Of a stretch of 64,000 bases of DNA, positions 29,441 to 29,481 are shown piece by piece. The stretch lies in assembly GCF_016026235.1 (NCBI RefSeq), contig NZ_CP065613.1; one strand, written 5' to 3'. Source of the stretch: Escherichia coli (GTDB taxonomy: Bacteria; Pseudomonadota; Gammaproteobacteria; Enterobacterales; Enterobacteriaceae). The translations under genes were made by a program, and so were the position numbers. The notes under the pieces are model-generated. The model was not told the DNA's origin and did not search any database. It worked only from the letters and a program-made list of their open reading frames with translations. Positions within the stretch are counted from its first letter, which is position 1, and each line of letters starts with the position of its first letter.

Positions 29441-29481
29441 CTGTAAATATCCTGGCATTAGTAATGCCAGGATATTTACAG
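29441..29481. repeat. 41-bp perfect palindrome (20-bp arms) between convergent ykgG and ykgH
   Basis: CTGTAAATATCCTGGCATTA G TAATGCCAGGATATTTACAG read directly. Confidence 0.6.

Follow-up and report, generated by a model that had tools for sequence, protein, structure and literature searches.

The stretch of Escherichia coli DNA considered here (64,000 nucleotides, hereafter the window) matches E. coli O145 RM9872 at 100% identity and contains two convergent transcription units, ykgEFG and ykgH. The last gene of the former, the lutC-like ykgG, occupies 28641–29336 on the plus strand, and ykgH, which encodes a predicted membrane protein, lies at 29577–30245 on the minus strand. The 240-bp spacer between them holds an exact 41-bp palindrome at 29441–29481, made up of a left arm, CTGTAAATATCCTGGCATTA (29441–29460), a central unpaired G (29461) and a right arm, TAATGCCAGGATATTTACAG (29462–29481), which a script check of the window letters confirmed as the exact reverse complement of the left. 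The original prediction for this site, made from the letters alone, was of a perfect palindrome with 20-bp arms and a central G, flanked by convergent ykgG and ykgH and followed by no U-tract on either side, and the window letters, gene coordinates and strands bear out this description in full. Immediately 3′ of the palindrome the plus strand reads TGAAAAAGAC / UGAAAAAG and the minus strand AAGAGGAGCA / AAGAGGAG, with no T-run on either; on each strand the T-runs come before the hairpin instead (CTCCTCTT on the plus strand, GTCTTTTTCA on the minus strand). The flanks, GCTCCTCTT and TGAAAAAGA, show no target-site duplication.

The palindrome is far beyond chance. The inverted-repeat listing of the window gives it 20-nt arms, 100% complementary and 1 nt apart, and no perfect inverted repeat of hairpin type is longer anywhere in the 64 kb (the runner-up has arms of 14 nt), where by our own arithmetic random sequence would hold ~4e-6 such repeats (64,000 × 61 spacings × 4^-20). 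The arm sequence matches the window at the two palindrome sites only, even at 3 mismatches, with 0.01 matches expected from shuffles. Independent complete assemblies of E. coli share this exact 41-mer in 2,009 cases, which makes an error of sequencing or assembly very unlikely. Being a palindrome, it should give either crossing transcript the same 19–20 bp hairpin of about −28 kcal/mol; the computed RNA fold of the 41-mer is −27.8 kcal/mol on either strand, and variant haplotypes fold at −18.8 to −25.8 kcal/mol. The surrounding 116–181 nt fold with z of about −7 to −8, a signal due entirely to the 41-bp core. A dyad extended to ~29412–29514, as drawn in RNA folds, was rejected: shuffling the 30-nt flanks gave z of −0.7 to +0.5 in eight strains, local alignment of the left flank with the reverse-complemented right flank gave p ~0.34, and right-flank changes in the B2 type described below are uncompensated. 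The element is the 41-bp core only.

Copy number, haplotypes and descent

The palindrome was surveyed in 5,426 complete E. coli genomes, with a 116-nt segment centred on it and the 41-mers as queries. The segment is found in 5,143 of these (~95%), always at one locus; a second 'place' given for each record is the self-match of the palindrome on the opposite strand and not a second copy. The question of whether the arms recur in this genome or in other E. coli, raised with the original prediction, is thereby answered with a single locus in every genome that has it. Three main haplotypes together account for 5,055 genomes: the perfect form, which includes the O145 window, in 2,009 (37%); the K-12 type, CTGTAAATATCCTGGtATTAcCAATGCCAGGATATTTACAG, with three apex substitutions, in 1,875 (35%); and the B2/UTI89 type, CTGTAAATATCCTGaCATTAaTAATGCCAGGATATTTACAG, with one A·C mismatch, in 1,171 (22%). 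The comparison with K-12, also proposed at the outset, proved informative in that the K-12 copy is imperfect. A further form, CTGTAAATATCCaGaCATTAaTAATGCCtGGATATTTACAt, comes from a divergent Escherichia lineage seen in two metagenomes (L023 and L024), whose YkgH is 89% identical and whose spacer is at most 92% identical to that of any complete E. coli genome; the set of complete genomes lacks this lineage. Scanning metagenomes with a degenerate pattern gave 17 contigs, two of them chimeric with adapter, and zero new haplotypes, and a scan of genome contigs with a pattern that fixes G15, and is blind to the B2 type, gave nothing but a pair of tiny Amycolatopsis contigs, both of them contaminating E. 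coli sequence fused to adapter.

Across these four haplotypes, positions 1–12 of the left arm are invariant and at least 18 of the 20 pairs are retained, with changes falling at the apex, the centre (G in the window, C in the K-12 type, A in the B2 type and the divergent lineage) and the terminal pair, which L023/L024 have lost. The sole mid-stem change, T:A to A:T at pair 13:29 in L023/L024, is compensatory, and undoing either half of the swap in L023 would cost ~5 kcal/mol. Counted by pair, 15 are invariant, 1 is compensatory, 1 is G·U and 3 are broken in at least one haplotype. We estimate the chance that 2 of 3 substitutions fall on partner positions and are complementary at ~0.025. The paired change at 13:29 is suggestive of structure, with a template-switch mutation, instead of selection, equally possible as its source. 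An attempt to assign the structure to one strand from its G·U wobbles was uninformative, the K-12 variant favouring the plus strand and the B2 and L023 variants the minus strand.

The suggestion that the element might belong to a small palindromic repeat family, such as the repetitive extragenic palindromes (REP), has not survived. With one locus per genome and no consensus copies, REP and bacterial interspersed mosaic elements (BIME), ERIC, other dispersed repeats and miniature inverted-repeat transposable elements (MITEs) were all rejected, and the palindrome bears no resemblance to GC-rich REP. The REP/BIME and ERIC/IRU families are similar to it in being imperfect-to-perfect palindromes of transcribed intergenic regions, and REP elements can stabilise upstream mRNA; they differ in occurring in hundreds of GC-rich copies with a defined consensus, where the palindrome is single-copy, AT-rich and unrelated in sequence. 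An Rfam scan found no family at the gathering score, only sub-threshold matches to eukaryotic microRNA hairpins, the curated MG1655 record carries no annotation at the site, and a text search of a literature library found no paper that contains its sequence or mentions it. A LexA (SOS) box, CTGT-N8-ACAG, was rejected because CTGT and ACAG stand at the two outer ends of the palindrome, separated by 33 nt. Palindromes become unstable or inviable in sbcCD+ E. coli at sizes of the order of 100–200 bp or more, and the sensitivity to SbcCD at first ascribed to this one was overstated: it is only 41 bp, several-fold shorter than the sizes that cause problems, and is stably inherited in thousands of genomes, 2,009 of them complete genomes with the identical form.

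Some records interrupt the element or end within it. Two Logan contigs with a ykgH-like gene, L021 (1359–1472) and L022 (1079–1192), both end 19 nt into the palindrome; they show pervasive C-to-T differences, as from bisulfite-converted reads, and were left out of the haplotype comparison. Perfect palindromes longer than the k-mer are probably a cause of such assembly breaks. Independent insertion sequence (IS) insertions adjoin the element in L003 (~4099–4852) and L015 (315–1477). JNEC-KY203 has lost both palindrome and ykgH, with an IS1 that starts ~5 bp before the site the palindrome would occupy; in BKQWHE, all but the final few bp of ykgG have given way to an IS3.

Of the haplotypes, the B2 form with its single mismatch is probably the ancestral one, since the L023/L024 outgroup has A15 and the central A in common with it. 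The perfect form would then probably have derived from the B2 type by A15G, which restores the pair, together with a change of the central base, and CE0007a and L033 carry a perfect palindrome on B2-like flanks, as expected of an intermediate. The K-12 form would be a later change of three substitutions limited to the apex; between the O104 and K-12 haplotypes there are three substitutions within 7 bp against one in the other ~200 bp, a clustering that suggests a multi-base mutational event. Template-switch correction of quasipalindromes in E. coli is known from reporter-gene hotspots studied by the Ripley and Lovett laboratories. An A-to-G change that turns one mismatch back into a pair is its expected result. 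That the palindrome is exact is probably a by-product, and by this order of haplotypes its perfection appears to be a derived and dispensable state. The variants here either restore complementarity (A15G) or jointly preserve it (13:29), and the apex changes are clustered, as in quasipalindrome correction; in contrast to the reporter-gene cases, the mechanism is inferred from polymorphism only, and the K-12 changes reduce complementarity.

The same observations can be read as the history of a functionless relic, which arrived or arose with an AT-rich, Escherichia-specific ykgH segment and has been kept, and sometimes perfected, by template switching without selection, little time having passed. 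We consider this the main rival to the role proposed below: possible, though the less likely of the two. YkgH is an orphan: a homologue search returned only Escherichia proteins, all of them at ~79% identity or above. In other genera the sequence 3′ of ykgG is unrelated and often holds a GC-rich hairpin, CCGCTCTGG...CCAGAGCGG, so that spacer, palindrome and ykgH are all Escherichia-specific; ykgH has a GC content of 32–40%, against ~50% for ykgEFG. The palindrome is not more conserved than its flanks, its perfection is derived and has been lost again in the K-12 lineage, and template switching would account for the exact repair by A15G, the double change at 13:29 and the multi-base event suggested by the O104 and K-12 forms. 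What speaks against a relic is its non-random site, which coincides exactly with the transcript boundary and Rho region mapped for the two convergent units (next section), and a stem that retains at least 18 of its 20 pairs across over 5,000 genomes, as well as in a lineage ~8% diverged. Moreover, the K-12 changes move away from perfection, which correction alone does not predict.

Transcript ends around the palindrome in K-12

Published transcript data for K-12 were placed on the window by a verified window-to-MG1655 offset of +295119, by which the palindrome corresponds to MG1655 324560–324600. On the minus strand, Term-seq puts a strong 'orphan' 3′ end at NC_000913.3 324603, scored 43,492 and 126,276 and seen under two or more conditions (PMC7815308, supplementary file 1), and the sequence listed at this end is ...GGATGCCTGTCTTTTT|CACTGTAAAT (PMC7815308). 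It falls on the last U (29484) of a U5 tract in the ykgH-sense RNA (29484–29488, minus strand), 2 nt before the palindrome. Right before the tract lies a weak irregular hairpin (29489–29523, minus strand; ~−7.6 kcal/mol), the simplest form of which is a 4-bp CAGG/CCUG stem, and which would be at best a marginal intrinsic terminator for ykgH; the 96-nt fold from the ykgH stop codon to the U5 tract has z = −0.75. As no strong hairpin precedes the tract, the ykgH boundary there does not qualify as a standard intrinsic terminator. On the same strand, a Rho-termination region at 324578 coincides with the palindrome centre (score 3.5, p 4e-7; PMC7815308, supplementary file 2), with upstream/downstream read counts of 160/16 in untreated cells and 572/199 under bicyclomycin (PMC7815308). 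Roughly two thirds of this drop is bicyclomycin-resistant and the remainder Rho-dependent.

On the plus strand, a Rho-termination region at K-12 324913, equivalent to window 29794 and antisense within ykgH, has a score of 6.7 (p 2e-23) and counts of 160/36 untreated and 172/260 under bicyclomycin (PMC7815308). From this region it follows that ykgEFG-sense transcription crosses the palindrome and ends ~310 nt further on, fully dependent on Rho. The K-12 Term-seq lists contain no plus-strand 3′ end anywhere in the spacer. Just 3′ of the hairpin on the ykgEFG-sense RNA is a mildly C-rich, G-poor tract (29497–29556, plus strand; 19 C, 10 G), judged by its composition a possible Rho loading region. 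The 3′-end data, proposed for inspection at the outset, place a ykgH-sense end 2 nt before the palindrome and none after the hairpin. The palindrome is at the boundary of two overlapping convergent units, yet it does not act as their terminator.

Bidirectional intrinsic terminators reportedly have an A-tract upstream and a U-tract downstream, which supplies a hairpin and a U-run on each strand. With such terminators (Ju et al., 2019, cited in PMC8175672) the palindrome shares a single symmetric and very stable hairpin in a convergent spacer, and the original prediction had put forward this function. Of that proposal, the coincidence with a unit boundary and a Rho region stands. A canonical bidirectional intrinsic terminator common to ykgEFG and ykgH is, however, very improbable: the T-runs are on the wrong side, preceding the hairpin whichever strand is read, neither strand has a U-tract after the stem, and an intrinsic-terminator consensus scan of 29000–30500 returned no site at the palindrome. 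In K-12, the plus strand reads through, with termination downstream fully bicyclomycin-sensitive, and the minus-strand end lies before the stem, with none 7–9 nt after it.

The mapped minus-strand end also delimits the 3′ untranslated region (3′UTR) of ykgH (29484–29576, minus strand, from stop codon to 3′ end), equivalent to the putative Hfq-bound small RNA (sRNA) 'ykgH.EST3UTR'. By RIL-seq this 3′UTR was classed as a putative Hfq-bound sRNA derived from a 3′UTR, its targets having a motif in common (Melamed et al., 2016, PMC5145812), and it was later given a high sRNA score (Bar et al., 2021, PMC8175672); its table row, with column headers unchecked, appears to give 826 and 278 as numbers of chimeric fragments and 5 as the U-tract (PMC8175672). 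On northern blots the RNA was undetected, though RNA-seq reads accumulate there (PMC8175672), and the unsuccessful probes map to 29504–29533 and 29496–29519. The palindrome shares the spacer and the ykgH strand with this sRNA and lies outside the mapped RNA, whose 3′ end at 29484 is 2 nt upstream of it. A genomic-SELEX (systematic evolution of ligands by exponential enrichment) peak for RNA polymerase holoenzyme with a minor sigma factor also falls in the spacer (old coordinate 323832, window ~29489; intensity 5.6, type C). Going by the section title, the factor is apparently the extracytoplasmic-stress sigma RpoE, and by eye there is no convincing RpoE-type promoter near 29489.

A 3′ end just outside a dyad, in a unit with no proper terminator, is what a DNA-bound roadblock would yield: a dimeric protein, or a sigma-54 closed complex, seated at the centre of the palindrome would stall polymerase ~15 nt upstream of its edge, with release by Rho or Mfd. 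We regard this as unlikely. A cruciform and a protein-binding dyad, both put forward in the original prediction, have met with neither support nor contradiction. The dyad has sharp 41-bp boundaries with no significant symmetry beyond them, and the K-12 end, which has no adequate terminator hairpin upstream and is partly Rho-dependent, falls 2 nt beyond the palindrome edge, at a distance of 15 nt from the inner TGGCA...TGCCA core, a spacing argument that was made after the fact. At 29453–29469 (TGGCATTAGTAATGCCA) there is a sigma-54 −24/−12-like TGGCAT-N5-ATGC (GG-N10-GC) on both strands of the window (consensus TGGCAC-N5-TTGCW), and the holoenzyme SELEX peak is in the same spacer. The K-12 apex substitutions create TGGTATTACCAAT, a perfect TGGT-N3-ACCA dyad (MG1655 324574–324586, window 29455–29467), which is offset 3 bp from the palindrome centre, stands beside a lactate-utilisation-like operon, and presumably belongs by its likeness to the GntR/PdhR/LldR operator type. 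However, neither a candidate protein nor binding data were found, 41 bp is far longer than usual operators, and the inner part where the protein would sit is the variable part: the sigma-54-like core is lost on one strand in the K-12 type and on both in the B2 type, through loss of the GG or GC, and the GntR-like box is limited to the K-12 type. Nor is a symmetric plus-strand 3′ end reported at ~29438. A wider scheme, to which we give a little less credence still, would have the palindrome stop polymerase just outside itself, whether as DNA (bound protein, sigma-54 closed complex or cruciform) or as nascent RNA, and so make the U-tailed 3′ end of an Hfq-dependent ykgH 3′UTR sRNA for which the sequence supplies no proper terminator hairpin. 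It would be a new kind of termination or insulation element that needs no U-tract, and sRNA output and the antisense overlap of ykgEFG and ykgH would vary with the three natural haplotypes across E. coli phylogroups.

The minus strand is also open for 65 codons through the palindrome, from 29605 to 29408, and could be an unannotated small-protein gene encoding one hydrophobic helix (WMPVFFTVNILALLMPGYL / MNTNKTLGSNKQHSDRECLYKAEVTMTGKGTRFQEWMPVFFTVNILALLMPGYLQKRSITMTERG). This open reading frame (ORF) is intact in all haplotypes examined, the only indel in the divergent lineage is an in-frame 3-bp deletion, and the ratio of nonsynonymous to synonymous change (pN/pS) between the B2 type and L023 is 0.29. 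In most comparisons, each with very few substitutions, pN/pS is 0.65–0.85, with no clear purifying selection, and by our own estimate such a frame would be open by chance with p ~0.1. Its ATG has no Shine-Dalgarno sequence and overlaps the ykgH 3′ end, it is annotated neither in the curated MG1655 record nor by PGAP, and most of its 3′ half lies beyond 29484, where the dominant RNA ends; that it encodes a protein is hardly to be expected. A Shine-Dalgarno-like GAGGAG followed by a 5-codon mini-ORF, after the palindrome on the minus strand, was rejected, the motif being O145-specific (mostly GAGCAG elsewhere) and the mini-ORF the tail of the 65-codon frame.

Proposed role of the stem-loop

The palindrome is most likely an unannotated, lineage-specific, single-copy stem-loop at the point where the convergent ykgEFG and ykgH units meet. 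As to its role, we favour, at a probability of roughly 40%, a structurally maintained RNA stem-loop that has no U-tract and marks the 3′ boundary of both units, linked to Rho-dependent 3′-end formation. On the minus strand, most ykgH RNA would end at the U5 tract, 2 nt before the hairpin, giving the Hfq-associated ykgH 3′UTR species; transcripts that read through this weak stop would gain the hairpin, the first structure they meet, and then stop in a partly Rho-dependent manner. On the plus strand, polymerase would cross the hairpin and be terminated by Rho ~310 nt further on, inside antisense ykgH, and 3′-to-5′ exonucleases would be expected to trim the transcript back to the hairpin. Such trimming would protect the 3′ end of the ykgEFG mRNA and limit the sense/antisense overlap. 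The order of elements on the plus strand (ykgG stop codon, hairpin, mildly C-rich tract, Rho region) fits this protective-hairpin scheme, since exonucleases trim Rho-terminated RNA back to such hairpins. Formation of the hairpin in vivo, a block to exonucleases or insulation of the two units, and the carry-over from K-12 to O145 are all inferred.

Stem-loops of this kind, which have no U-tract and fix the 3′ ends of Rho-terminated transcripts (Dar and Sorek, 2018, PMC6061677; PMC7815308), are like the palindrome in being stable hairpins downstream of a gene, and they share with it a Rho region downstream on the plus strand; on the minus strand, the Rho region coincides with the palindrome. In contrast to them, the palindrome has no mapped 3′ end right after the hairpin and is unusually long and perfect (20 bp), AT-rich, with a nominal 1-nt loop, and present on both strands. 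Although unannotated and undescribed, it belongs to a familiar class, that of stable intergenic stem-loops at 3′ boundaries.

Several observations weigh against the proposed role. No 3′ end lies right after the hairpin on either strand in three K-12 Term-seq conditions (PMC7815308), which tells against an exonuclease barrier, as that model predicts one; weak expression of ykgEFG in those media may hide plus-strand ends there. The dominant ykgH RNA ends upstream of the hairpin and so does not contain it. All the transcript data come from K-12, with its imperfect variant, and none from O145 or O157 strains with the perfect form. Imperfect forms are present in 57% of genomes, so perfection is not maintained, and the overall conservation of the palindrome is no better than that of the rest of the spacer. 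Covariation amounts to a single pair in four haplotypes and is not significant against a shuffle control (129/500).

Neighbouring sequence and wider meaning

The protein encoded by ykgH has only sub-threshold Pfam matches (DUF6520, the Wzz N-terminal region and a holin family), and a mobile origin of the gene was rejected, there being no phage homologue and the plasmid matches being F-primes or mislabelled chromosomes. Downstream of ykgH in the window is a hyxB-like autotransporter gene (30427–33680), reduced to two pseudogene fragments by an IS3-family insertion (32163–33376), and after it an island with hyxA, hyxR and ipbA, a fimX/hbiF invertase gene (33722–36284). K-12 is without this hyx/ipbA island, and there betA adjoins ykgH. 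Two further inverted repeats lie in this part of the window: an AT-rich near-palindrome at 36828–36859, between ipbA and betA, with 20-nt overlapping arms that are 90% complementary, and a repeat at 41416–41485, in the 5′ part of betT, with 29-nt arms that are 86% complementary and 12 nt apart.

Closer to the palindrome, the K-12-type spacer contains at 29366–29384 (MG1655 324485–324504, L045 786–805) the sequence GAAGAAGGCATACGAGGT, a 16/18 match to the Illumina P7 adapter end GAAGACGGCATACGAGAT; at this site the O145 window lacks 2 bp. A K-12 segment of ~260 bp, comprising the ykgH 3′ end, the palindrome and the P7-like site, is fused to adapter in L010 and L011 ('Amycolatopsis orientalis'). 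The same adapter-fused segment occurs in a chimeric metagenome contig, L036, and a second chimera, L040, has the same junction. The fusions are likely to stem from primer mispriming on contaminating E. coli DNA. In practical terms, palindromes of this size break short-read assemblies, and the P7-like sequence beside the K-12 copy contaminates unrelated assemblies.

Were the palindrome only a relic, it would merit a minor annotation note. If the hairpin works as proposed, a single structure would serve both convergent transcripts without being an intrinsic terminator. At a distance of 2 nt, moreover, is the 3′ end of a candidate Hfq sRNA, the biogenesis of which has no explanation so far. Its three natural alleles (perfect, one mismatch and apex-altered) form a ready series for relating stem quality to Rho-linked 3′-end formation, and may equally be used to study quasipalindrome correction in wild populations of E. 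coli.

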